Shown: in pieces, positions 1 through 48,397 of the stretch | Numbering within the stretch: the first letter of the stretch is position 1 | How the letters are laid out: the number at the start of each line of letters is the position of its first letter | Assembly (NCBI GenBank): GCA_021791195.1 | Contig: JAJYXB010000017.1 | Coordinates: 13,422 to 77,421, forward strand | From: Actinomycetes bacterium | GTDB taxonomy: Bacteria > Actinomycetota > Thermoleophilia > BMS3ABIN01 | Reading direction: 5' to 3' | Length of the DNA: 64,000 nt | Made by a program: the position numbers and the translations under genes | Notes under the pieces: generated by a model | The model's input: only the letters and a program-made list of their open reading frames with translations | The model's database searches: none | What the model was told of the DNA's origin: nothing

Positions 1-245
1 ACTGCGAGCGCTATCTGAACAAGGGGCGCCAGGTGGCGATCGACGGCCGGCTGAGCTACCGGTCCTGGGAGGCCCAGGACGGCAGCAAGCGCTCGAAGGT
101 CGAAGTCGTCGCCAACACAGTGCAGTTTCTGGGCTCGCGTGAAGGCGGCGGCGCGCCGGTCGCGGCCGGATCCGCTTCAGGGCTCACGCCCGACACTTCG
201 GATTTCGACCAACCGTCCGCGAGCGACGACGATATCCCGTTTTAA
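1..245 (+). CDS. ssb: single-stranded DNA-binding protein, 3' partial (runs off window start)
   Basis: ORF ends in an acidic tail ...SASDDDIPF, the classic SSB C-terminal protein-interaction tip. Gly/Ala/Ser-rich linker upstream. Followed by rpsR as in the rpsF-ssb-rpsR operon. Confidence 0.8.
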
Positions 246-334
246 CCCGCACGGCCGGGCGCGCTCCGGCGCGCCCGCAGTCACAAATACAACTGTTCGC
301 AGCAGAAGCTGACAACATCAAAGGAAGGAAAAAT

Positions 335-613
335 ATGCCCGCACCCAGAGGAGGATCACGCAAGACCAGCAAGCGCCCATCGTGGCGCGGGGGCTTTCAG
401 GGAGGCCAGCGGCGCAAGTACTGCTACTTTTGCAAGGAGAAAGTCGAGCACATCGACTACAAGAACTATAACCAGCTGAGGCGCTTCGTCTCCGATCGCG
501 GCAAGATCCGCGCCCGGCGTGTCACCGGCACCTGCCGGCGCCACCAGAATCAGCTGGCGACCGCGATCAAGCGTGCCCGCGAGGTAGCCCTGCTGCCTTA
601 CGTGGCGCGTTAA
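335..613 (+). CDS. rpsR: 30S ribosomal protein S18
   Basis: 92-aa basic protein with ...[14 protein letters not shown]...[22 protein letters not shown]..., characteristic of S18. Position after ssb. Confidence 0.9.
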
Positions 614-647
614 TGCGGGCCAGCTGCCAAAGAAGAGGCGGCTTCTT

Positions 648-1613
648 TTGAGTGGCATCTCAACAAACGCGTTAGTCGATGGCGGCAAGGCGGCCGGGCT
701 GTCCGTCCTTTTTGGCCTGGTGCTGGCTTTCATGCCGGTGCTGGCCATCCTGGCGGTGCCTTTGCTGCCGATCCCGGTCGCGTATGTCATCGCCCGCCAT
801 GGCCTGGCGCCGGGAGGGCTGACCGCTCTGGCGGCGGGCGCGCTGCTGATCGCCGTCGAGCCGTTCAGCGGCATCCTGGCCTTTTTGCTGATGGCGTTGG
901 CGGGGACCGGCGCCGGCATCATGCTCAGGCGCGGCGCCAGCCAGGCGCGGCTGCTGGCGGTGCTGTCGGCACTGTTCCTTGCCGCCATGGTAATCTGGGC
1001 GGCGGTGGTGATGCTCAGCACCGGCATGGGTCCGGTAGAAGCCGTGCACAACGTCACGGGCCAGATGCTGGCGGCAGGGCAGCAGTCATCTTCGCTGATC
1101 GGCGGCCAGGACGGGCTCAACCAGCTGCGCGACATCCTTGACCTGATGCCGTACCTGCTGCCGTCGTTGATGCTGGTCGCTGCCATGGCTTTCTCGGCGA
1201 TCGCCGTGTTTCTGGCCCGGCCGGTTTTCGCCCGTCTGGACCAGGAATTTCCGGCGGGCGCGCCGTTTCGCGACCTGAGGCTGCACTATTCCCTGGCCTA
1301 CCTGATGATCGGCGGGCTGGTGTGTTACCTGGTGTCGCCGTTTGTGTCTGACAGCGCCTCCAGCGTGATCTATCTGGTGGGGCTGAACATGCTGATCGTC
1401 TCGCAGGCGCTTTTTTTCGTGCAGGCCATCGCGATCGCATATTATTTTCTGACGCAATATAACGTCTCCAGAGTGAAGCGCATCGGTGTCTACGCCTGCC
1501 TGGTGCTATTGCAGATGACCCTGTCGCTGCCCAGCTGGATGGCGCTGTTCGACATCTGGTTCGATTATCGCCGGCGTTTTGCCAAAAAAGGAAAGATCAG
1601 TCAAAGCAGTTAA
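648..1613 (+). CDS. polytopic membrane protein, DUF2232/YybS-like
   Basis: 321-aa strongly hydrophobic ORF with a TTG start. Sits between rpsR and rplI where yybS lies in firmicute-type genomes. Confidence 0.5.
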   Translation: MSGISTNALVDGGKAAGLSVLFGLVLAFMPVLAILAVPLLPIPVAYVIARHGLAPGGLTALAAGALLIAVEPFSGILAFLLMALAGTGAGIMLRRGASQARLLAVLSALFLAAMVIWAAVVMLSTGMGPVEAVHNVTGQMLAAGQQSSSLIGGQDGLNQLRDILDLMPYLLPSLMLVAAMAFSAIAVFLARPVFARLDQEFPAGAPFRDLRLHYSLAYLMIGGLVCYLVSPFVSDSASSVIYLVGLNMLIVSQALFFVQAIAIAYYFLTQYNVSRVKRIGVYACLVLLQMTLSLPSWMALFDIWFDYRRRFAKKGKISQSS

Positions 1614-1661
1614 GCCGCCGCAGTGCAGGCTCAATCAAAAGAGAAGAGAGGAGATTTCCCC

Positions 1662-2111
1662 ATGGACATGATATTGTTGCAGGACGTGGCTGGCCTCGGT
1701 CAGAAGGGACAGGTAGTGACGGCCGCGGACGGTTACGCGCGCAACTTTCTGCTTCCGCGGAAGCTGGCGGAGATCGCCACCCCCGGCCGCGTGGCGGAGG
1801 TCCGCCGCCGGCAGGAGGAGGCCGAAGTGAAGGTCCTGCGCGACGCCGAACGCGCCGATGAGCTGGCAGAGACGCTGGGCAAGACCGTGCTCACGGTCAC
1901 GGCGCAGGCGGGCGAGGACGGCAAGCTGTTCGGCTCTGTCACCGCCGCCGACATCTCTGACGCGATCTACGATGCCCGCAAGGTGCGCGTCGACAAGAAG
2001 AAGATCAGCCTGCCGGAGCCGATCAAGGAAACCGGCGACTATATGGTGGAGATCGAAGTCCACAGCGGCGTCAACGCCACCACCAAGGTGATCGTTGCCG
2101 CCGCCAGATAA
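1662..2111 (+). CDS. rplI: 50S ribosomal protein L9
   Basis: N-terminus MDMILLQDVAGLGQKGQVVTAADGYARNFLLPRKLA matches the L9 signature. AGAGGAG RBS upstream of the internal ATG. Confidence 0.85.
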   Translation: MDMILLQDVAGLGQKGQVVTAADGYARNFLLPRKLAEIATPGRVAEVRRRQEEAEVKVLRDAERADELAETLGKTVLTVTAQAGEDGKLFGSVTAADISDAIYDARKVRVDKKKISLPEPIKETGDYMVEIEVHSGVNATTKVIVAAAR

Positions 2112-2129
2112 ATCACTAAAAGGATCGTC

Positions 2130-3467
2130 ATGGCCCGCGAGCTGAAGCCGACCGCAGCCATCCCTCCGCAAAACCTCGAGGCGGAAGAATCCGTGCTGGG
2201 GGCGATGATGATGTCCCCCGGGGCGATCATCTCTGCCCTCGACCAGTTGCATCGCACTGACTTTTACCGCGATTCGCACCGGGAGATCTATGGCAGCATC
2301 GTCGATCTGTTCAACCAGGGCGAGCCGGTGGACCAGATTACGGTCACCGAACACCTGGCGCACCGCGGGGTTCTGGAGCGGGTTGGCGGGAAGGCATACA
2401 TCCATACGCTGGTGTCGACCGTACCGGTAACGGCCAACGCCGCCCATTATGCCCGCATCGTCCGCGAGAACGCCATCCTCCGGTCGCTGATCGATGTCGG
2501 CAACCGCATCACTGCGCTCGGCTATGATCGTCCGGGCGAGGTGCGGGAACTGCTGGACCGCTGCGAGAGCATGGTGTTCGAGATCTCGCAGGAGCAGATC
2601 AAGGGCGAGTTCCGTCACATGAAGGAACTGCTCTCCGACCAGTTCGAGCGGATCGAGAAGCTGCACGAGGCGGGCAAGGCGATCACCGGTGTTCCCACCG
2701 GTTTTCATGACCTCGACAAAAAGACCTCCGGCTTCCAGCAGTCCAACCTGATCATCCTGGCGGCGCGGCCCTCGATGGGCAAGACGGCGCTGGCGCTGAA
2801 CCTGGCGCAGAACATCGCCGTCAAGCAGGGCATCCCCGTGGCCCTGTTCAGTCTGGAGATGAGCGAGATGGAGCTGGCGCAGCGAATGATGTGCACCCAG
2901 GGCCGGATCGACAGCGAGCGCCTGCGCAACGGCGCGGTCAGCGCCGACGACTGGACGAAGCTGACCGAGGCCTGCACCCTTTTGCAAAAAGCGCCTATTT
3001 ATGTTGACGATACGCCGAACATGAACATGCTCGAGATCCGCGCCAAGACGCGGCGGCTGAAGAGCAAGCATCCCGACCTGGGCCTGGTGATCGTCGACTA
3101 CCTGCAGCTGATGATGTCTGACGAGCGGGTCGAGAGCCGGCAGCAGGAAATCTCGAAGATTTCCCGTTCGATGAAGATCCTGGCGCGCGAGCTCGAGTTG
3201 CCGCTGCTGGCGATCTCGCAGCTTTCGCGGGCGGTGGAATCGCGGACGCCGCCGCGGCCGGTCCTTTCCGATTTAAGGGAGTCAGGAGCGATCGAGCAGG
3301 ACGCCGACGTCGTGATGTTCATCTACCGGCCGCGTGACGAGTCCGGCAAGCTGGAAAACACTGCCGAGCTGATCATCGCCAAGCACCGCAACGGTCCCAC
3401 GGGCACGGTCGACCTGGTATTCACGGAAAAATATACCTCGTTTGCCAGCGCCGCCCGGCGCGCCTAG
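2130..3467 (+). CDS. dnaB: replicative DNA helicase DnaB
   Basis: PPQNLEAEESVLGAMM N-terminal motif. Walker A ARPSMGKTALALN, Walker B IVDYLQLM, RecA-like C-terminal domain. 445 aa. Confidence 0.9.
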   Translation: MARELKPTAAIPPQNLEAEESVLGAMMMSPGAIISALDQLHRTDFYRDSHREIYGSIVDLFNQGEPVDQITVTEHLAHRGVLERVGGKAYIHTLVSTVPVTANAAHYARIVRENAILRSLIDVGNRITALGYDRPGEVRELLDRCESMVFEISQEQIKGEFRHMKELLSDQFERIEKLHEAGKAITGVPTGFHDLDKKTSGFQQSNLIILAARPSMGKTALALNLAQNIAVKQGIPVALFSLEMSEMELAQRMMCTQGRIDSERLRNGAVSADDWTKLTEACTLLQKAPIYVDDTPNMNMLEIRAKTRRLKSKHPDLGLVIVDYLQLMMSDERVESRQQEISKISRSMKILARELELPLLAISQLSRAVESRTPPRPVLSDLRESGAIEQDADVVMFIYRPRDESGKLENTAELIIAKHRNGPTGTVDLVFTEKYTSFASAARRA

Positions 3468-5044: not shown

Positions 5045-5908
5045 TTGACCTACGTTTACCTCAACAGCCGCATGCTTCCGGCCCAGGCCGCCATGGTGCC
5101 GGTATTCGACCGCGGCTTTGCCTACGGCGATGCCCTGTTCGAGACGCTGAAACTGACGCGCGGCCGGCCGGTTTTTTTCCGCGAGCACTACCGGCGCCTG
5201 ATGCGCGGTCTGCGCGAGGCGGGCATTGAGACGGCTATCGATCATGACGGCCTGCTGGGCCAGGTGCTCTCGCTGGCCGAGGCGAACCAGGCTCACAGCG
5301 GCCGGCTGAGGATCCAGGTGACGCGCGGAACTCCGCCCGCGCCCGGCGGCCCGGAGCCGCTGCCCGGCACCGAGCCGGTGCTGCTGGTAACCGCCGAGCC
5401 ATTCGCCGGTTATCCGGAAGCAGTCTACGCCGAGGGCATCGCCTGCCGCACGGTGCCGTTCAACCGGGGGCGCTACGCACGACTGAAATCGACCAACCTG
5501 ATGGGTGTCATCCTGGCGCGGCAAGAAGCGCACGCCGCCGGCGCCCAGGAGGCGATTCTCACCAGCGGGCATGGCGGGATGCTGGAGGGGTCCTACAGCA
5601 ACATTTTTTTCCTTCAGGGAGGCAGGCTGATCACGGCGGCCGGGCAGAATATCCTCGCCGGCGTGACGCGGGACAAGGTGCTGGGACTGGCGGAATCCGC
5701 CGGCCTGGAGGTGGAACTGCGGGCGCCGCAGCTCAAGGAGCTGTCCCGGCATACGACGTCGCCGTTCCTGACCAGCAGCGTGCTGGGCCTCTGCCCCGTG
5801 CGCGAGATCGACGGCGACGGCTTCAGCCGCGACGGCCGCGTCGCCGGACTGGCGGCGCGCCTGGCTGCCCTGGAAGAGGCATCAATCGAGGCGCTGGCGG
5901 TTCCCTAG
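5045..5908 (+). CDS. pabC: aminotransferase class IV / aminodeoxychorismate lyase-like
   Basis: [11 protein letters not shown] motif and 287-aa fold-type IV size. Abuts the pabB-like gene. Confidence 0.65.
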
Positions 5909-10220: not shown

Positions 10221-10350
10221 ACTAGCCGGTCTGCAGGAAAAAAAGCGATCGGACTGTTTCCGGCGCGGCGGGCAAAGCAAGGGGTGCGCGCCGGGAAAGC
10301 AGTGGGATATAATGTCATCCCAGTTTGCGCGCATATCATCCGGAAACTGG

Positions 10351-11304
10351 ATGGTGATGAAACCGGCAGAGCTGAAAAACAAACGCATCGGTGTCCTGAT
10401 GGGAGGACTCTCCCGCGAGCGGGAGGTCTCCTTGCGCTCGGGGTCCGGCTGCCTGGAAGCGCTGACCGCGCTGGGTTACGACGCGGTCGGTATCGATGTG
10501 GACCGCGAGGCGGCCCCCACGCTGGGCCGCGAAGGCGTGGAGGTGGCCTTCCTGGCCCTGCACGGGAAATTTGGGGAAGACGGCGCGATCCAGGGATTGC
10601 TCGAGCTGCTCGGCATCCCCTACACCGGTTCTAGGGTTCTGGCCAGCGCCACGGGCATGAACAAGGTGCGTACGAAGCAGGTCGCGGCCTGGTACGGCAT
10701 CGCCACGCCCGCGTTTGCCATCTTCGACGGCGTCCACGAGCTGGAGGCCGCGACTCGCGACGCAGCCGCGCGGCTGCGTTTTCCCGTGATGGTGAAACCG
10801 TGCGAGGAAGGCTCGAGCCTGGGAGTAGCAAAGGTGGAGAGCCCCGATCGGCTGGCGGAGGTGGTGCACGCCACGCATGGCGATTTCGGGCCCTCGCTGG
10901 CGGAAGAGTTCGTCGAGGGCGACGAGGTGACCGTGGGTCTGCTGGAATCGGAGGACGAACTAACGGCGCTGCCGGTGCTGCAGCTTGTACCGGGCGCCGA
11001 CTTCTATGACTTTCACTCCAAATACAGTGAGGGCGGCACCCGCTTCATCGTGCCGGCGGAGCTGCCTGAGCCGGTCTGCGCCCGGACCCGGGAGCTGGCC
11101 GCGCAGGTGCACCGGGCGCTGGGCTGCCGCGGGTTCAGCAGGGTGGATTTCATCATCGGCGCGGATGGCGCACCGCAGCTGACCGAGATCAACACCATTC
11201 CCGGAATGACCGCCACCTCGGACCTGCCGGCGCAGGCAGCCGCTGCCGGCATCGGTTATGAAGAGCTGGTGGAGAGGATGCTGACGACCGCGATGCTGCC
11301 CTGA
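10351..11304 (+). CDS. ddl: D-alanine--D-alanine ligase
   Basis: RIGVLMGGLSREREVSLRSG N-terminus, ATP-grasp motifs, C-terminal EINTIPGMT. Start taken at the MVMKPAELK ATG. Confidence 0.85.
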   Translation: MVMKPAELKNKRIGVLMGGLSREREVSLRSGSGCLEALTALGYDAVGIDVDREAAPTLGREGVEVAFLALHGKFGEDGAIQGLLELLGIPYTGSRVLASATGMNKVRTKQVAAWYGIATPAFAIFDGVHELEAATRDAAARLRFPVMVKPCEEGSSLGVAKVESPDRLAEVVHATHGDFGPSLAEEFVEGDEVTVGLLESEDELTALPVLQLVPGADFYDFHSKYSEGGTRFIVPAELPEPVCARTRELAAQVHRALGCRGFSRVDFIIGADGAPQLTEINTIPGMTATSDLPAQAAAAGIGYEELVERMLTTAMLP

Positions 11305-27667: not shown

Positions 27668-28222
27668 ATGATCGCCTGGCTAATCATCATCGCGGTTATC
27701 GCGGTGCTGATCATCGCGCTCGCCGCTGCCTACAACGGCCTGGTAAGGTCGCGCAACAAGGTGAATAATTCCTGGAAGCAGATCGACGTGCAGCTAAAGC
27801 GGCGGCATGACCTGATACCGAATCTTGTCGAAATGGTCAAGGACTACATGTCCTATGAGCAGGAAGTGCTGCAGAATGTCACCAAGGCCCGCTCGGAGGC
27901 GATGCAGGCGCAGGGCCCGGCGGACTCCGCCAAGGCCGAGAACGTGCTCAGCGGCGCCCTCAAGTCGCTGTTCGCGGTGGCGGAGAACTATCCCGACCTG
28001 AAAGCCAACCAGAACGTTTCGCAGCTGCAGGAAGAGCTGACCTCGACAGAGAACAAGATCGCTTTTGCCCGTCAGCTGTACAATGACCTGGTCATGGATT
28101 TCAACAATAAGGTACAGACGTTCCCGTCGAACGTCGTTGCTGGCGCCTTCGGCTTCAAGGCGCGGGAATACTTCGAAGTGCCGGAAGAAGAGAAGGAACC
28201 GGTGAAGGTCAATCTTCGCTAG
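27668..28222 (+). CDS. lemA: LemA family protein
   Basis: N-terminal TM, ...YNGLVRSRNKVNNSWKQIDVQLKRRHDLIPNLV... characteristic of LemA. Confidence 0.85.
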   Translation: MIAWLIIIAVIAVLIIALAAAYNGLVRSRNKVNNSWKQIDVQLKRRHDLIPNLVEMVKDYMSYEQEVLQNVTKARSEAMQAQGPADSAKAENVLSGALKSLFAVAENYPDLKANQNVSQLQEELTSTENKIAFARQLYNDLVMDFNNKVQTFPSNVVAGAFGFKAREYFEVPEEEKEPVKVNLR

Positions 28223-28340: not shown

Positions 28341-29261
28341 GTGTATCAAGAAATAGCAAAAAACAAGCGGCTCTCCTACCTGCTCATCGTGATCGTGACC
28401 GCCCTGCTGATCGTGCTCGGCTATGCGATCGGCTATGCCACGGGATTGGGCTGGTTCGGACTGGTGATCGCGCTGGCGATCGCTATCGGCCTTGGCCTGG
28501 CCAGCTATTTCCAGGGCGACAAGATGGTGCTGGCCGTCAGCCACGCCCGCCCGGTGACCCACGAAGACGCGCCGCAGCTTTACAATGTCGTCGAGGAGAT
28601 GGCGATCGCGTCCGGCAATCCGGTGCCGGCAGTCTACATCATTGACGATCCGGCGCCTAACGCCTTTGCGACTGGCCGGGACCCGCAGCATTCATCGATA
28701 GCCGTCACCTCGGGGCTGCTGGCGAAGATGAACCGGGAAGAACTGCAGGGCGTGGTAGCCCACGAGATGTCGCATGTGCGCAATTACGACATCCTTTTCG
28801 CCACGCTGGTCGGCATCATGGTGGGGGCGATCGCGCTCATGGCCGATTTCTTTCTGCGCTGGAGCATTTTTGGCGGCGCCCGCCGCAACGAGAACGACAA
28901 CAACGGCACGATCGGCGTCATCCTGCTGGTCGCCGCGCTGGTGCTGGCGATCCTGGCTCCCATCGCCGCCCGCATGGTGCAGCTGGCCATCTCGCGCAAG
29001 CGCGAATACCTGGCAGACGTGTCGGCGGTGAAGCTTACGCGCAACCCCAACGGGCTGGCCAGTGCGCTGGAGAAGATCGCCGCAGACAAAGAGGTGCTGG
29101 TGGAGGCCAACCGCGCTACGGCGCATCTCTATATCGCGCAGCCGATCAAGAAGTTCGAGAACCGTTCCCGCGGCCTGTTCGATACCCATCCACCGATTCA
29201 GGAGCGTATCCGCATCCTGCGGGCGATGGCCCACGAAGCGCCCGCGCCTGAGAGCGCCTGA
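28341..29261 (+). CDS. htpX: M48 zinc protease HtpX
   Basis: HEMSHVRNYD HExxH motif and 4 TM segments. Classic LemA-HtpX pairing. Confidence 0.85.
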   Translation: MYQEIAKNKRLSYLLIVIVTALLIVLGYAIGYATGLGWFGLVIALAIAIGLGLASYFQGDKMVLAVSHARPVTHEDAPQLYNVVEEMAIASGNPVPAVYIIDDPAPNAFATGRDPQHSSIAVTSGLLAKMNREELQGVVAHEMSHVRNYDILFATLVGIMVGAIALMADFFLRWSIFGGARRNENDNNGTIGVILLVAALVLAILAPIAARMVQLAISRKREYLADVSAVKLTRNPNGLASALEKIAADKEVLVEANRATAHLYIAQPIKKFENRSRGLFDTHPPIQERIRILRAMAHEAPAPESA

Positions 29262-29397
29262 AGTCTCGCCAGAGGCGCCAGGCTTCGCCAGGCACTGGTA
29301 TGCGGGGGCGCTTGTGTCCCGGACGGTTTCCAGATAAGATTGCCTCTCCCCCCGCACTCCCGGCAGAAAATCCGCTCCGTGGCAACAGGAGCAGCCA

Positions 29398-30050
29398 TGT
29401 CATATCCCTTGCTGAAAGACGTTTCCGGTGCGGTTGCCGCGCCGGCCGCCGACCCCGCCCTGTTCGACCACGAGCTGGTGGGCCTGCTGCTTGACAGGCC
29501 GGGCGGTGAACCGCTGGCAGTACTTTCAGAGCGCATTTTCAGCCTGTTCGCCGGCAGGGCGCTCTCGCCGGTGCCTTCCGAGGAGATCCGCGGCTGCGGC
29601 CTTTCCGGGCCGGAGGCCGACCGCCTGCTGGCGGCGATCGAGCTGGCCAAGAGGCTGTTGTGGCCTGACGATGGCCGCATCTGCATCCGCTCGCCCCAGG
29701 ATGTCTGCCGGGCGGCGGCCGCGATCCGCTCCGCCGGCAAGGAGCACTTCCTCGCGCTCTATCTCGATGCGCGCAACGTGCTCATCCATCAGGAAGTGGT
29801 GTCGATCGGCAGCCTGAACGCCAACATCGTGCACCCGCGGGAGGTATTCCGGCCGGCGATCGCCACCGGCGCCGCCGCGGTCATCCTTGCCCATAATCAC
29901 CCGTCGGGGGATATCTCGCCCAGCCAGGAAGATCTGAGCCTGACTGCCCGCATGGTCGATGCCGGCCGCCTGCTCGGCATAGAGGTGCTCGACCATGTCG
30001 TCATTTCCAGCAGCCGGTTTATCAGCTTCCGCAGCGAGTCATACATCTGA
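29398..30050 (+). CDS. radC: RadC-like JAB/MPN domain protein
   Basis: C-terminal JAMM motif ILAHNHPSGDISPSQED. Start taken at internal ATG MSYPLL; TTG at 29340 is also possible. Confidence 0.75.
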
Positions 30051-30083
30051 TATCCTTTACAAAGATGAAAAAATAGTCCCATT

Positions 30084-30386
30084 TGTGGAAAAACCGCTTG
30101 TCTCCTTGCGGCAACTTTTTTACCGCCGCCGTTTCCGGGCCTGCAATCCCGCCATAAACATTATTCATTAAGCTGTTTTCAAAAATGACGTGTTTTGCGG
30201 GCAGGTTGCTCAATGAAAGTGTTTTTGACTTTCTTTGTCGGGTTTTTTTGGCAAGGAGTTTTTAACCGTGCAAATCCTTTTTGGGACACGCCGGCGTGAA
30301 GTTATCCACACTTTCCACAGTTTTGCATAGGCCCGATTCGCGGCACCGGGGTGATGTTGACTTTGTGGAAAAAATGACTGTATACT
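30084..30386. promoter_or_regulatory. DnaA-box cluster, AT-rich stretch and sigma70-like promoter upstream of rpmH
   Basis: Perfect TTATCCACA at ~30302-30310 followed by CTTTCCACA. Two TGTGGAAAA boxes (~30084-30092, ~30364-30372). AT-rich run ~30170-30300. TTGACT(~30357)-18 nt-TATACT(~30381) promoter with a DnaA box in the spacer. Confidence 0.5.
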
Positions 30387-30417
30387 GTCAGGTCGTTAAT
30401 ATGTAAAGGAGATTCCT

Positions 30418-30552
30418 GTGAAGCGGACCTATCAGCCGAACACGAGGAAAAGGAAGAAAACACACGGTTTCCGGATCCGGATGAGCACGAAGGCCGGCCG
30501 CCGTTTGCTCAAGCGCCGCCGCGACAAGGGCCGGAAGAGGTTATCGGCATAG
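30418..30552 (+). CDS. rpmH: 50S ribosomal protein L34
   Basis: [47 protein letters not shown] start, AAAGGAG RBS. Confidence 0.9.
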
Positions 30553-30569
30553 GAACCGGCACGTTTTCG

Positions 30570-30935
30570 GTGGACAAGAAGCACCGTCTCACCAGGTCGG
30601 CGGATTTCCAGCGGGTCTACCGCCAGGGGAAATCCGTGGCCGGCCGGCACATGGTCCTATATTACTTTGAAAGGCCCACGGAGAGTCCGGCTGATCCCCG
30701 GCTGGGGCTCACGGTATCGAAGAAGATCGGCGTGGCCGTGGTGCGCAACCGTGTCAAGCGGGTGCTGAAAGAGGCCTTCCATCAGTTTCAGGAAGATGTC
30801 GCGCCGGGCTACGATTATGTAATTATTGCCCGTTCCGGGCTGGCGGAGTATGTAGAAAAAAGCCAGTTTGAAGCCATCGTGACCGCGATGGCGGACCTGT
30901 TCCGGCGGGCTGACCTAATCCAGGAAGCAGAATAA
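30570..30935 (+). CDS. rnpA: ribonuclease P protein component
   Basis: ...HRLTRSADFQRVYRQGK...NRVKRVLKEAF... RnpA signature. GTG start. Follows rpmH. Confidence 0.9.
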   Translation: MDKKHRLTRSADFQRVYRQGKSVAGRHMVLYYFERPTESPADPRLGLTVSKKIGVAVVRNRVKRVLKEAFHQFQEDVAPGYDYVIIARSGLAEYVEKSQFEAIVTAMADLFRRADLIQEAE

Positions 30936-30936
30936 C

Positions 30937-31158
30937 TTGAAGCGAATACCAATCTTGCTGATCGGCTTTTATCAGAAGCTGATTTCACCGCTGTTTCCCC
31001 AACGTTGCAAATATCATCCCTCCTGCTCGAACTATGCAATCGATGCTTTCAGGGAATGGGGTTTTTTCCGCGGCCTGGCGCTGTCAGTGTGGCGCGTCTT
31101 GCGCTGCAATCCCTTCTCGCTGGGCGGCTTTGACCCGGTCAGGAAGAGGCAGCCGTGA
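30937..31158 (+). CDS. yidD: membrane protein insertion efficiency factor YidD
   Basis: CKYHPSCSNYAIDA...RCNPFSLGGFDPV. Confidence 0.85.
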   Translation: MKRIPILLIGFYQKLISPLFPQRCKYHPSCSNYAIDAFREWGFFRGLALSVWRVLRCNPFSLGGFDPVRKRQP

Positions 31159-31883
31159 CCGACGCTCTTGCTTTCCTGATCAATCCGCTTCGGCAGATAC
31201 TTTTCTTCCTGCATAACAACCTCGGCCTGTCGTATGCGCTGGGGATCATCGTCATGACCATCGCGCTGAGGCTCATCCTCACGCCCCTGACCATCAAGCA
31301 ATATACGGCGATGCGGGCGATGCAGAAGATCCAGCCGCTGATGAAAGAGCTGCAGGCGAAGTTCAAGGACGACCGGCAAAAGCTGAACGAAGAGACGATG
31401 AAGCTTTACCGGGAGCACAAGGTAAATCCTTTCGGCTCCTGCCTGCCGATGCTGATCCAGCTGCCGATCACCATGGCGCTCTATTACATGATCCGCAGCC
31501 AGCCTTTCACCACCGACAACTCATTCCTCTGGATCAGCAACATCAACGACCCTGACAGGATCCTGCTGGTCTTCTATGTGCTCAGCCAGCTGGGCTCCAG
31601 CCTGATGCTCACCACCACCACCGACAAGTCCCAGCGCATGCTGATGCTGATCATGCCAGTGGCCATCGGTTTCCTGGTGATTGGATTCCCGGCCGGGGCG
31701 CTGCTGTTCTGGGTGACGTCCAATCTGCTGATGCTGGGCCAGCAGCTGATCGTGCGGGAAGTAATCAAGGGCAGGGAGGCTCGTGAAGAGCTGGCGATTG
31801 AGCCGGCTCCTGAGCCACCTCAGCCAAAGACCGGAGGCAAGCCGCATGCAGGAAAACCAAAATCAAAAAAGAAACGCCGCTGA
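31155..31883 (+). CDS. yidC: membrane protein insertase YidC (short Gram-positive type)
   Basis: 242 aa, 5 TM helices, ...LTPLTIKQY...MQKIQPLMKELQAKFKDD... YidC/Oxa1 core. Lys-rich tail. Confidence 0.85.
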   Translation: MTDALAFLINPLRQILFFLHNNLGLSYALGIIVMTIALRLILTPLTIKQYTAMRAMQKIQPLMKELQAKFKDDRQKLNEETMKLYREHKVNPFGSCLPMLIQLPITMALYYMIRSQPFTTDNSFLWISNINDPDRILLVFYVLSQLGSSLMLTTTTDKSQRMLMLIMPVAIGFLVIGFPAGALLFWVTSNLLMLGQQLIVREVIKGREAREELAIEPAPEPPQPKTGGKPHAGKPKSKKKRR

Positions 31884-32628
31884 GGCCAAGGTAATCGGCA
31901 GCGGCAAGACGGTCGTGGAAGCCCAGGCTGACGCGCTGGCGAAGCTGGAGGCGGTGGCTGGACCCTTCCGCAAGGACGAAGTCGAGCTGATCGTCCTCTC
32001 AGAGGGTTCGAAAGGCTTTTTGGGGATGGGTTCCGCCATGGCGGAGGTCGAGGCGTCCCTGCCTGGCCCCGAAGCGAGCCAGCCGGAACCGGAGTTCTTC
32101 GACGAGGTCCTGGCCGACGAGCCTCAGCCTTTCATGACCGAGCGGGCGGAGAAGGAAGAGGATTTTCAGCCGGCCGGCGCGGAGGCCGAAGCCCGGCTGG
32201 AGGAATTCCTGCGGCAGATTCTGGAAGGGATCGGCCTGGAGGCCAGCGTGGTGGTGGCGGATGAGTACGAGGCGCTGGTGGGCAACATCACCGGGGAAGA
32301 CCTCGGGCTGCTCATCGGCCGTCACGGCCAGACCATAGATGCCATCCAGTATCTGGCCAACATCGCCGTGTTCCGGGGAACTCCCGATCGCAAGCGGGTA
32401 GTTGTCGACGCCGAAGACTACCGCGAACGCCGCGCCGAGGTACTGAAATCCCTGGCCGAACGGGGCGCCAGCGAGGTTTTGAGCGGCAAGCCGCAATATG
32501 AACTGAAACCGATGAGCGCCGCCGAGCGGAGGGTCATCCACATGTATCTGCAGGACCGCAAAGGCATCGATACCATCAGCGAGGGCAGCGACCCATTCCG
32601 CCGGGTGATCATCACCCGCTCAGCGTAA
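31846..32628 (+). CDS. jag: Jag/KhpB-like RNA-binding protein (KH + R3H domains)
   Basis: C-terminal R3H motif ...SAAERRVIHMYLQ...DTISEGSDPFRRVII. Position after yidC. Confidence 0.7.
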   Translation: MQENQNQKRNAAEAKVIGSGKTVVEAQADALAKLEAVAGPFRKDEVELIVLSEGSKGFLGMGSAMAEVEASLPGPEASQPEPEFFDEVLADEPQPFMTERAEKEEDFQPAGAEAEARLEEFLRQILEGIGLEASVVVADEYEALVGNITGEDLGLLIGRHGQTIDAIQYLANIAVFRGTPDRKRVVVDAEDYRERRAEVLKSLAERGASEVLSGKPQYELKPMSAAERRVIHMYLQDRKGIDTISEGSDPFRRVIITRSA

Positions 32629-32639
32629 TAGGAACCTGC

Positions 32640-32846
32640 TTATTCTGCCGGGTAGCCGGCTTCGGCCAGCGCCTTTCTGATCTCGTCCAGCGAAACGGCG
32701 CTTTCATCGTAGCTGATGTCGACCGCCTTCGTCTGGGGGTCGGCGCTTATCGACTTCACCCCGCCGAGCGATCCGCCGGCGTTTTCCACAGCCATCTTGC
32801 AATGGCCGCATGACATCTTTGGAACATTCAGCGTTACTTTCTGCAT
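32640..32846 (-). CDS. copZ: heavy-metal-associated copper chaperone CopZ-like
   Basis: MQKVTLNVPKMSCGHCKMAVE with the MxCxxC HMA motif. ~68 aa. GGAGGA RBS. Confidence 0.75.
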   Translation of the reverse strand: MQKVTLNVPKMSCGHCKMAVENAGGSLGGVKSISADPQTKAVDISYDESAVSLDEIRKALAEAGYPAE

Positions 32847-33042
32847 GGCTTCCTCCATTCTTAGACGGCGGCCTGCGTCCCGACCAGACATGCCGCCCGA
32901 AATATTTTTCTGACAGAGAGGATAGCAGAGCCCGATGTAGAAAAAGAAGGCTCGATGAGGGATTCCCGGCGGGAAAGCGGGAAAGCGGGAAAGGGCCGGC
33001 GTCGTGGGGCCCGGGCAGCAAGACTATCCAGAAAGGACCAGG

Positions 33043-33261
33043 ATGTTCAGCGATAATGTTTTTAAAGGTTTTCAGTTGCATCGCGGCCTGCAATTGGCCA
33101 AGGTGCCCTGTTCGTGGTGCGGAGAGGAAGTGCCACTGCCAGCGGGAGATTTCAGCGGCGTGTGCATCGAATGCGGTACCGTGATGTTCCGCGGTTCCCG
33201 TCGCGCTTCTCTGGCCAGCGGAAGCCGGGAGGCGGATTATATCCCGGCGCCGGCTGTCTAG
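33043..33261 (+). CDS. hypothetical small zinc-ribbon protein
   Basis: Two CxxC pairs (CSWCG...CIECG). No family recognised. Start uncertain. Confidence 0.3.
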   Translation: MFSDNVFKGFQLHRGLQLAKVPCSWCGEEVPLPAGDFSGVCIECGTVMFRGSRRASLASGSREADYIPAPAV

Positions 33262-33412
33262 CCGGCCGCAGCAGACAGAAAACCAGGCACTTGCGGAAGG
33301 CCGCCCGCGCGGGCGGCCTTCCGCTGCCTGAAAACGGCACGCATGCCAGCGCCCACTGCTGCGGGCATGATACAATCCTTCCCGGGAGCCTGCCCCCTTT
33401 TTCGCAATTGAC

Positions 33413-47317: not shown

Positions 47318-47394
47318 TGGCGCCCCGAGAAGGATTCGAACCTTCGACCTACCGCTTAGGAGGCGGTCGCTCTCATCCTCTGAGCTATCGGGGC
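47318..47394 (-). tRNA. tRNA-Arg (anticodon CCT)
   Basis: Reverse complement folds as GCCCCGA-TAGCTCAGAGGAT...ACCGC-CTCCTAA-GCGGT...GGTTCGAATCC...TCGGGGC-G-CCA with encoded CCA. Anticodon loop CT-CCT-AA. Confidence 0.85.
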
Positions 47395-47461: not shown

Positions 47462-48397
47462 TCAGCTCTCAAGCGCGCAGAGCAGGATCTCTTCCACCAT
47501 GTCATTGAAACTCAGGCCCGCAGCCTGAGCCGCCATCGGCATCAGGCTGGTCTCGGTGAAACCGGGGATGGTGTTGATCTCCAGACACCAGAGCCCGCCC
47601 GCATCGTCGAGGATCAGATCGACGCGGCCGAAGCCGGAGCAGTTCAGCGCGTTGAATGCCTTCAGCGAGATCTCGACGGCGCGTGCGGCGACGTCCTCCG
47701 GGATCTCCGCCGGCACGACGTAATCGGCTTTCCCCATCGTGTAACGCGATTCGAAGTCGAAGAACTCTGTCTTGGGGATCGCCTCGACGATCGGCAGCGC
47801 CCGCGGTTCCCGGCCGATGATGCTGACCGCCAGCTCCCGTCCCTTGACGTATTTCTCCAGCAGCACCTTGTCGTCGAAACTGAAGGCGGAGATCAGCGCC
47901 GCCGGCATCTCCTCGACGCTGTGGGCGAAGCGCACGCCCAGCGCGGAGCCCTGGCCGGCGGGCTTGACGACGATCGGCAGGTCGAGCTCCCCGGTGATGA
48001 TCGGCAGGGTGTCCACGGCGCCCAGCTCCTGGAAGGCGTCACGGCTGAAGGCGTAGAAATCCGGCGTCGGAATGCCGTCCGCCACAAAGATGTGTTTTGA
48101 CAGCACTTTGTCCATGCACCGCAGCGAAGGCAGAACGTTCGAGCCGGTGTAGGGGATGCCAAGGATCTCCAGCAGCTCCTGCACCGTGCCGTCCTCGCCG
48201 CTCTTGCCGTGCATGGCGATGAACGCCGCGTCCGGTTTCATCTCTTTCAGCCGCCTGACCATGCGTACATCGACGTCGATGCTCTCGACCGTGTGGCCGA
48301 GCTCTTCCAGAGCCTTCTCCACCCGCGCTCCCGACTTCAGCGAGATGTTGCGCTCGAGCGAACGCCCTCCTTTGAGAACCGCCACTTTCTTGCTCAT
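47462..48397 (-). CDS. D-alanine--D-alanine ligase family ATP-grasp enzyme (second Ddl paralog)
   Basis: MSKKVAVLKGGRSLERNISLKSG...HGKSGEDGTVQELLEILGIPYTGS...EINTIPGFT. 311 aa. Confidence 0.8.
   Translation of the reverse strand: MSKKVAVLKGGRSLERNISLKSGARVEKALEELGHTVESIDVDVRMVRRLKEMKPDAAFIAMHGKSGEDGTVQELLEILGIPYTGSNVLPSLRCMDKVLSKHIFVADGIPTPDFYAFSRDAFQELGAVDTLPIITGELDLPIVVKPAGQGSALGVRFAHSVEEMPAALISAFSFDDKVLLEKYVKGRELAVSIIGREPRALPIVEAIPKTEFFDFESRYTMGKADYVVPAEIPEDVAARAVEISLKAFNALNCSGFGRVDLILDDAGGLWCLEINTIPGFTETSLMPMAAQAAGLSFNDMVEEILLCALES

Follow-up and report, generated by a model that had tools for sequence, protein, structure and literature searches.

A DnaA-box module of fixed geometry upstream of rpmH in an Actinomycetota clade without dnaA at this locus

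Clusters of DnaA boxes beside rpmH are normally inseparable from dnaA autoregulation and from oriC. In the standard dnaA–rpmH arrangement, exemplified by the dnaA autoregulation region, by the incA/incB half of the bipartite oriC of Bacillus subtilis and by oriC1 of Pseudomonas, the boxes lie directly upstream of rpmH; a split of rpmH from oriC1 and dnaA has been recorded in Zymobacter (bioRxiv 10.1101/2025.08.05.668638). Another kind of cluster is represented by oriCII of P. aeruginosa, a group of boxes upstream of gidA without which the chromosome can still replicate and by way of which DnaA controls gidAB-parAB (PMC13438810). Here we describe a box cluster that likewise lies directly upstream of rpmH, in the 367-bp intergenic region (IGR) between a RadC-like gene and rpmH in a 64,000-nucleotide stretch of an Actinomycetes bacterium (contig JAJYXB010000017.1; hereafter the window), which is contained in the metagenome-assembled genome (MAG) contig DAHYQI010000004.1 (GCA_027392855.1, 180,887 bp).

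An earlier reading of these letters (the original prediction) had proposed an oriC or DNA-unwinding element, or else a DnaA-regulated rpmH promoter, within a rearranged origin region. We found that evolution of the clade to which the window belongs has separated the boxes beside rpmH from dnaA, and we give about an even chance to the reading that the region is an orphaned, still functional DnaA-binding module, predicted from its sequence to regulate transcription or titrate DnaA at the rpmH operon and to derive from an ancestral dnaA–rpmH cluster.

A three-box module with fixed internal spacing

The window contains four sites matching the strict consensus TTWTNCACA, three of which fall within 289 bp of the IGR; this segment holds three boxes with at most one mismatch and one with two mismatches. 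A distal box is inverted relative to a tandem pair that abuts head to tail, and a fourth box lies inside the spacer of the rpmH operon promoter, TTGACT-18-TATACT, the sole sigma-70-like match in 29800-30700 (Table 1); all four boxes and the promoter with a box in its spacer lie where the original prediction had put them. At least three strict boxes occurred in shuffled versions of the 367-bp IGR with a frequency of 5e-6 (200,000 composition-matched shuffles), and the IGR is the sole cluster of at least three boxes (at most one mismatch) within 500 bp across 73 kb, which here and below comprise the 64-kb window and 9.35 kb to its left. The remaining strict match in the window (TTTTCCACA, + strand, 32782-32790) is isolated, within the coding sequence of an HMA copper chaperone (32640-32846, - strand).

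The AT-rich segment that had been remarked beside the boxes was also borne out: A+T content is 61% at 30156-30305 and 56% over the IGR, as compared to 38% for the window, whose G+C content of 61.8% is slightly below the ~64% given originally. Positions 30039-30338 form the most AT-rich 300-bp stretch of the window, and at the 80-150 bp scale several other intergenic or promoter stretches equal the IGR. The IGR is also bracketed by a 12-nt inverted repeat, ATATCCTTTACA at 30050-30061 and TGTAAAGGAGAT at 30402-30413 (11/12 complementary), whose right arm overlaps the rpmH ribosome-binding site; it has no evident conservation in relatives and is probably due to chance.

We compared the window with six GTDB species from a yidC-based scan (L007-L012), whose YidC proteins are 80-50% identical to that of the window and whose records read Actinomycetes, Thermoleophilia, Gaiellales MAGs or "Bacterium BMS3Abin01", and with four metagenome contigs from an architecture scan (L103, L104, L117 and L132). 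As L132 equals L117 over the module, the comparison comprised ten distinct sequences including the window. The RadC gene, the IGR and rpmH follow one another in this order in all six species and all four contigs, and in these relatives boxes occur at 5.9/kb within the IGR vs 0.15/kb outside it. Among 80 yidC loci scanned, abutting box pairs were confined to this clade.

Alignment of the ten sequences revealed a strict internal geometry: firstly, the distal inverted box, TTGTGGA(A/T)AA, is invariant in 10/10; secondly, the tandem pair, TT(A/T)TCCACA(C/T)T(T/A)TCCACA, is likewise present in 10/10; thirdly, the start-to-start distance from the distal box to the pair is 218 bp in every sequence except L011, in which it is 217 bp. 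Mean pairwise identity is 0.94 for the distal box and 0.91 for the tandem pair, 0.62 for an AT-rich central block, and 0.33 and 0.37 for the two spacers that flank this block, whose lengths are nonetheless kept, with no net insertion or deletion in spacer 1 other than 1 bp in L011 and none in spacer 2. No low-affinity boxes stand at fixed positions between the outer boxes in the sequences of the relatives. From these alignments we conclude that the DnaA boxes are under selection.

The promoter, TTGACTT...TGTATA(C/A)T, is kept in all relatives, and its distance from the module is not: the tandem pair lies 24, 25, 37-39 or 68 bp from the -35 hexamer (counted by hand). The box in the promoter spacer is perfect in the window only, is degenerate in L007 and L009 (TTTTCCAGA) and in L008 (TTTTCCGGA), and is absent from L010-L012, L103, L104 and L117; on this distribution it is best taken as a later addition in the subclade of the window. 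Thus, since the promoter distance varies and the promoter-spacer box is limited to a subclade, the conserved unit consists of the distal box, the central block and the tandem pair. For the predicted DnaA-regulated rpmH promoter, these results leave such regulation plausible; the promoter-spacer box that had been stressed is not conserved outside the subclade.

The central block has an A+T content of 63-71% in 10/10 sequences. Searches with an nhmmer profile of it, within 1.87 Mb of fetched loci, returned matches limited to this IGR in members of the clade; the outgroup dnaA–rpmH IGRs that we fetched gave no nhmmer match. AA/TT dinucleotides in the block show power at a period of 9.5-10.5 bp and a stronger peak at 12.5-13 bp, in sequences that are homologous and not independent.

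The block has no assigned partner, and this leaves room for a role that does not involve DnaA, in which the elements would serve a small RNA, a leader peptide or an unrelated factor and the look of the boxes would be incidental or that of a decaying relic. We consider this very unlikely. No Rfam match was found in the IGR at E<=10 apart from a chance snoRNA match, and RNAalifold gave weak consensus folds (-5.7 and -8.8 kcal/mol on the two strands) in which the only solid stem is formed by the boxes pairing together. An open reading frame (ORF) of 35-37 codons does run from the CAATG of the block through both tandem boxes (..FPHFPQ*) in L007 (~5129-5242), L008, L009 and L012; it is homologous to window 30210-30296 and present in five sequences. 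We judged it non-coding because it is interrupted, with no start or an early stop, in L010 and L011 and is shorter in the window; no ribosome-binding site precedes it, and substitutions within it show no bias towards synonymous changes. A sigma-70-like sequence inside the block, TTGCAA-17-TATATT, is confined to L007-L009, and the scan of the window found the rpmH promoter only. Neutral decay is ruled out because exact high-affinity 9-mers have been kept at 91-94% identity beside randomised DNA.

Table 1. Features of the module and of the genes beside it, in coordinates of the window
Feature	Position	Strand	Remarks
LemA gene	27668-28222	+	Pfam
M48 peptidase gene	28341-29261	+	Pfam
RadC-like JAB-domain gene	29340-30050	+	Pfam PF04002, E 4e-41
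RadC–rpmH IGR	30051-30417		367 bp
Semi-conserved A-rich block CAAAGATGAAAAAATAG	30062-30078	+	11-14 nt 5' of distal box; ungapped alignment; at least three NAN triplets in 7/10 relatives
Distal DnaA box TTTTCCACA	30084-30092	-	Reads TGTGGAAAA on +; inverted vs tandem pair
Spacer 1	30093-30171		Length kept, sequence not
Central block	30172-30246	+	~75 bp; conserved, AT-rich, T-rich on +; ..TTTGCRGG..CAATG..GACTTTCTTTGTCGG..
Spacer 2	30247-30301		Length kept, sequence not; zero indels in 10 sequences
Tandem DnaA box, perfect TTATCCACA	30302-30310	+	Abuts next box head-to-tail
Tandem DnaA box CTTTCCACA	30311-30319	+	
Linker, tandem pair to -35 hexamer	30320-30356		Variable; 37 bp in window
rpmH operon promoter TTGACT-18-TATACT	30357-30386	+	-35 30357-62; -10 30381-86
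Promoter-spacer DnaA box TTTTCCACA	30364-30372	-	Inside -35/-10 spacer; subclade-specific
rpmH-rnpA-yidD-yidC-jag operon	30418-32628	+	Downstream of module; Pfam L34, Ribonuclease_P, YidD, 60KD_IMP, Jag_N/KH/R3H
rpmH	30418-30552	+	
rnpA	30570-30935	+	
yidD	30937-31158	+	
yidC	31155-31883	+	
jag	to 32628	+	

Replication skew and origin signatures at the locus

If the module were the active oriC of the clade, it would be a minimal three-box origin left beside rpmH after dnaA had moved, unwinding either within the central AT-rich block or within the A-rich DNA to the left of the distal box. Three consensus-grade boxes and a conserved AT-rich block next to rpmH are what Ori-Finder-type rules look for; the spacing is rigid despite turnover of the sequence; the box orientation, TGTGGAWAA ... 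TTWTCCACA, is that of R1...R4 of E. coli oriC; and the 73 kb hold no other box cluster. We nevertheless regard an active origin as unlikely, on the following evidence.

Cumulative GC skew climbs from one end of the window to the other and shows no minimum in the vicinity of 30 kb. At fourfold-degenerate sites, skew is +0.020 to the left of the IGR and +0.021 to its right, each ±0.015 (computed from counts). A gene-level regression over 62 genes in the 73 kb, in which the coding-strand effect was separated, yielded a uniform + strand term of +0.022±0.005 and a switch-at-IGR term of 0.006±0.0055; the residual sum of squares was 60.6 for the uniform model, 77.3 for the switch model and 77.45 for the null model of no replication skew, and the switch model thus fits no better than the null. 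Relatives, when pooled, gave a uniform term of 0.020±0.007 and a switch term of 0.0125±0.007, their left side still not being negative. The amplitude of the skew is small (0.02), and on the left it is +0.016 to +0.020, where an origin predicts negative values; since the rearrangement is old, skew should have re-equilibrated. These data are most simply explained if leading-strand synthesis corresponds to the + strand over the full length, with the origin to the left.

Gene orientation points the same way. Of coding bases, 73% are on the + strand to the left of the site and 70% on the - strand to its right, so that genes on both flanks, including the rpsF-ssb-rpsR-DUF2232-rplI-dnaB operon, would mostly meet forks leaving the IGR head-on. 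Encoded on the + strand, this operon is separated from rpmH by 27 kb on the upstream side (window 1-3467; L087 8812-12820).

The basal unwinding system of bacterial origins, described by Richardson, Pelliciari and Murray, combines tandem DnaA boxes, a GC cluster, DnaA-trios and AT-rich DNA. It follows a rule in which one or more boxes are followed, after a spacer of at most 16 nt, by at least three DnaA-trios with a central A and then by AT-rich DNA (PMC8287927). Downstream of the tandem pair, at least three trios were found in 0/10 sequences, with 0-2 NTN triplets and an A+T content of 38-55%, vs seven trios at a spacer of 4 and 78% A+T in a control oriC from a Firmicute dnaA-dnaN locus (L110). 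In such a system the central block would have to lie on the other side of each of the three boxes. Upstream of the distal box, at least three NAN triplets occur 3-14 nt to its 5' side in 7/10 sequences vs 29% per sequence in shuffles, which would favour an origin; these triplets are not the preferred 3'-GAT-5', the sequences are homologous and not independent, and the DNA to the left of the box is unconserved and GC-rich in L010, with no conserved AT-rich DNA beyond the triplets. The 64-kb window contains no parS with three or fewer mismatches, and neither dnaA nor dnaN is nearby.

The control locus, L110 (2430-2800), is a dnaA-dnaN oriC of textbook form, of a kind that recurs in about 14 other gut-metagenome contigs (37% G+C); it has over 12 consensus boxes and ends in the abutting pair TTATCCACATTATCCACA, TCCC, seven DnaA-trios (CTA CTA CTA TTA CTA TTA GTA) and a (TA)n AT-rich stretch; a further consensus box, TTATCCACA, stands at about 2816, just before dnaN.

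Together, these results run counter to the oriC or unwinding element of the original prediction: the GC-skew switch, by which that prediction was itself in part to be judged, is absent from the site, the flanking genes are mostly head-on and the trios are missing after the tandem pair. The IGR is apparently not an active chromosomal origin. Predictors that combine boxes, AT-rich DNA and rpmH would call oriC here, probably wrongly.

Ancestry of the module and separation from dnaA

The RadC gene is co-oriented with rpmH and occupies the place held in outgroups by a divergent dnaA; the LemA and M48 genes, like RadC, point towards the IGR. As the original prediction had it, a RadC-like gene lies upstream and dnaA is absent: tblastn detected no dnaA in the 64-kb window, and the genes called in the 9.35 kb further to the left included no DnaA Pfam families, which together cover -39/+34 kb of the site. 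The query was an E. coli DnaA sequence, and the same query detected dnaA in 46 other loci. Among the relatives, tblastn found no dnaA within the fetched ±10 kb of the locus in L007-L012. The order LemA-M48-RadC-IGR-rpmH-rnpA-yidD-yidC-jag is shared by all six species, and LemA-M48-RadC-rpmH also by L104, L117 and L132.

In outgroups, dnaA and rpmH diverge from a shared IGR; this arrangement was found in Actinomycetota (L013, L058, L062, L074, L081 and L083), Nitrospirota and Gemmatimonadota. The IGRs of the outgroup Actinomycetota measure 320-510 bp and carry 2-5 DnaA boxes, including closely spaced pairs in the same orientation; the dnaA–rpmH IGR of L013 (71% G+C) has none. Because all relatives lack dnaA at this place and outgroups have it, the separation of dnaA from rpmH is old and clade-wide, not an artefact of assembly. 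The rearrangement that had been predicted from the missing divergent dnaA is therefore real and common to the whole clade.

A metagenome contig of 49% G+C (L126) retains both partners. Its IGR, between divergent dnaA and rpmH, carries an inverted box ~55 bp from the dnaA start and, across a gap of 209 bp, an abutting pair; relative to rpmH, both are oriented as in the module of the clade. The exact 209 bp carries limited weight since the search pattern of the metagenome architecture scan imposed a gap of 207-211 bp; the same scan also returned unrelated true origins, so that clade membership does not follow from the pattern by itself. The IGR of L126 (2260-2770) also has a palindromic box pair near dnaA and a middle box. 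As L126 has the same layout between dnaA and rpmH, the ancestral cluster may be represented in full by the module, and the clade module is most simply a complete ancestral rpmH-side DnaA-box cluster, predicted to have stayed with rpmH when dnaA separated in the ancestor of a deep Actinomycetota clade, with the breakpoint between the distal box and dnaA.

In the standard actinobacterial order, oriC separates parB...rpmH from dnaA...rplI-dnaB. Judged against that order, the location of rplI-dnaB and rpmH-jag on one strand here would fit an inversion, about the former origin, of the segment from dnaA to dnaB. The dnaA of the clade was not found among the best 120 matches of a protein search with DnaA of the nearest outgroup (L013), all of which were Solirubrobacterales-like, nor on a leftward walk past a Fic gene, where relatives show no synteny and contigs end at Fic.

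This gene encodes a Fic-domain protein of 503-512 aa beside a PhdYeFM/ParE toxin-antitoxin pair (L087 176-1687; L136 18-1556). It lies at or near the ends of long contigs in two species, and assemblies seemingly break just upstream of it; a short contig (L139) has ABC-2 transporter genes upstream of it.

Assemblies also end elsewhere around the locus. In L004 (GCA_028065365.1, JAPTWB010000036.1) the contig stops within the IGR, 64 bp short of rpmH (~30354 in the window), and its proteins are identical to those of the window for the shared genes rpmH, rnpA, yidD, yidC, jag and an HD gene; the break may be due to differences between strains or to poor coverage of AT-rich DNA. Between an 85-aa zinc-ribbon-like ORF (33004-33261) and an HD/OB-fold gene lies a 32-nt perfect GC-rich palindrome with the halves gcGGAAGGCCGCCCGC and GCGGGCGGCCTTCCgc (33293-33324). 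Three Logan contigs end at ~33313 and an ENA contig (L002) is a fold-back chimera centred there; the palindrome probably forms a terminator hairpin at which de Bruijn assemblies are interrupted. Finally, the window carries two D-Ala-D-Ala ligase family genes, at 10312-11304 (+) and 47462-48397 (-), the second of which adjoins tRNA-Arg(CCT) (47318-47394).

Proposed function and comparison with known systems

Because the cluster survived with exact geometry without dnaA, and apparently without being an origin, the boxes on the rpmH side would have a function of their own, which may be to control the L34/RNase P/YidC operon or to buffer DnaA. DnaA probably still binds them, since high-affinity boxes have long been kept beside randomised DNA. 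We propose that the abutting pair, as a high-affinity site, and the inverted distal box are both occupied by DnaA and that the central block either deforms readily by itself or carries a nucleoid protein. The block and the 218-bp spacing would jointly let the two DnaA-bound ends form one defined complex, as the fixed distance and the conservation of the AT-rich centre suggest. Standing 24-68 bp upstream of the strong rpmH promoter, such a complex would tie transcription of rpmH-rnpA-yidD-yidC-jag to the level or state of DnaA, and in the subclade of the window the extra box between -35 and -10 would permit direct repression. DnaA bound at the module would, in addition, be kept from the origin, with buffering as a by-product. 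DnaA control of the operon is the most economical function because the complex would adjoin a strong promoter and the subclade gained a promoter-spacer box. We infer occupancy by DnaA, looping and any transcriptional effect alike from sequence.

Several points weigh against this proposal. The distance between the tandem pair and the -35 hexamer varies, and not by whole helical turns, which is unusual for a classical operator or activator site and suggests a self-contained unit that does not depend on the promoter. Spacers that keep their length while their sequence is randomised are a classical hallmark of complexes of the oriC type, of which the enterobacterial oriC consensus is an example. 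Conservation of the promoter-spacer box does not extend to the clade as a whole. In the searches made, neither the dnaA nor the true origin of the clade was located, and the conclusion that the IGR is not the origin draws on skew, gene orientation and motif tests over the 73 kb and ±10 kb in relatives.

A fixed internal geometry with a variable promoter distance also describes a self-contained unit, as expected if the module regulated the DnaA cycle in trans, by titration or by a change in the nucleotide state of DnaA after the manner of datA, the DnaA-reactivating sequences (DARS) or the B. subtilis clusters, its position at rpmH being incidental. This seems to us rather unlikely. The DARS core sets box I in opposition to boxes II-III, with boxes I and II 5 bp apart (PMC6868365). 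The module shares with DARS1, DARS2 and datA a small number of boxes, one opposed to two in tandem, a strict geometry and a central element that might bend DNA, and its conserved AT-rich centre could stand in for the IHF-induced bend that datA and DARS2 need. At datA, which stimulates hydrolysis of DnaA-ATP, the boxes flank an IHF site that is essential, and no model of IHF sites applies to Actinomycetota. Unlike in DARS, the opposed boxes of the module are 209 bp apart, far from the 5-bp spacing, and the AA/TT phasing is ambiguous evidence of bending, with no evidence of a bending-protein site. To our knowledge, IHF and Fis sites are not expected in Actinomycetota, and we know of no loci of this kind described there. 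Three boxes, moreover, offer a small titration capacity; the B. subtilis clusters have many more. In that species, some clusters outside the origin are known to hold initiation back (PMC3245932).

A related and equally tentative idea, to which we assign a low probability, is that of an origin-derived machine acting on DnaA, either an IHF-independent counterpart of datA and DARS or a silent second origin, with its single opposed box and its tandem pair joined over exactly 218 bp by the conserved AT-rich central block. If true, no DnaA-cycle locus of this sort would have been described before in any group other than Proteobacteria and Firmicutes. The module is a compact 236-bp element of three boxes and one central block, the spacing rules of which are open to direct study.

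Compared with known systems, the module resembles the standard dnaA–rpmH cluster in the length of its IGR (about 320-510 bp in that cluster) and in having several consensus boxes. It differs in that a co-oriented RadC gene replaces dnaA, only three boxes are conserved and the central block is present, an element missing from the outgroup IGRs fetched; because dnaA is not on the other side, autoregulation of dnaA in cis is impossible. The abutting head-to-tail pair is the same as that in the basal unwinding system of the L110 oriC, GTTATCCACATTATCCACA, the better-matching box of the tandem being upstream in the window and downstream or equal in L007-L010. Unlike that system, the pair is followed by a GC-rich linker and the rpmH promoter, with 0-2 NTN triplets vs seven in L110. 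Enterobacterial oriC is likewise built of conserved blocks and random spacers of fixed length, its opposed outer boxes lying ~200 bp apart; unlike it, the module shows neither the skew nor the gene orientation of an origin and has no conserved low-affinity array between the outer boxes.

The closest documented case is oriCII of P. aeruginosa, also an origin-like cluster beside a conserved origin-proximal operon that is apparently not a functional origin. In that species dnaA and oriCI lie a few tens of kb away and oriCII replicates autonomously when cloned; the operon of the module is instead rpmH-jag. As in the DnaA-box clusters of B. subtilis and in oriCII, the boxes are conserved (10/10) and signatures of an origin are absent, which is the mark of a non-origin cluster. 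On its predicted architecture, the region is thus a variant of this known class of non-origin DnaA-box clusters, orphaned from dnaA.

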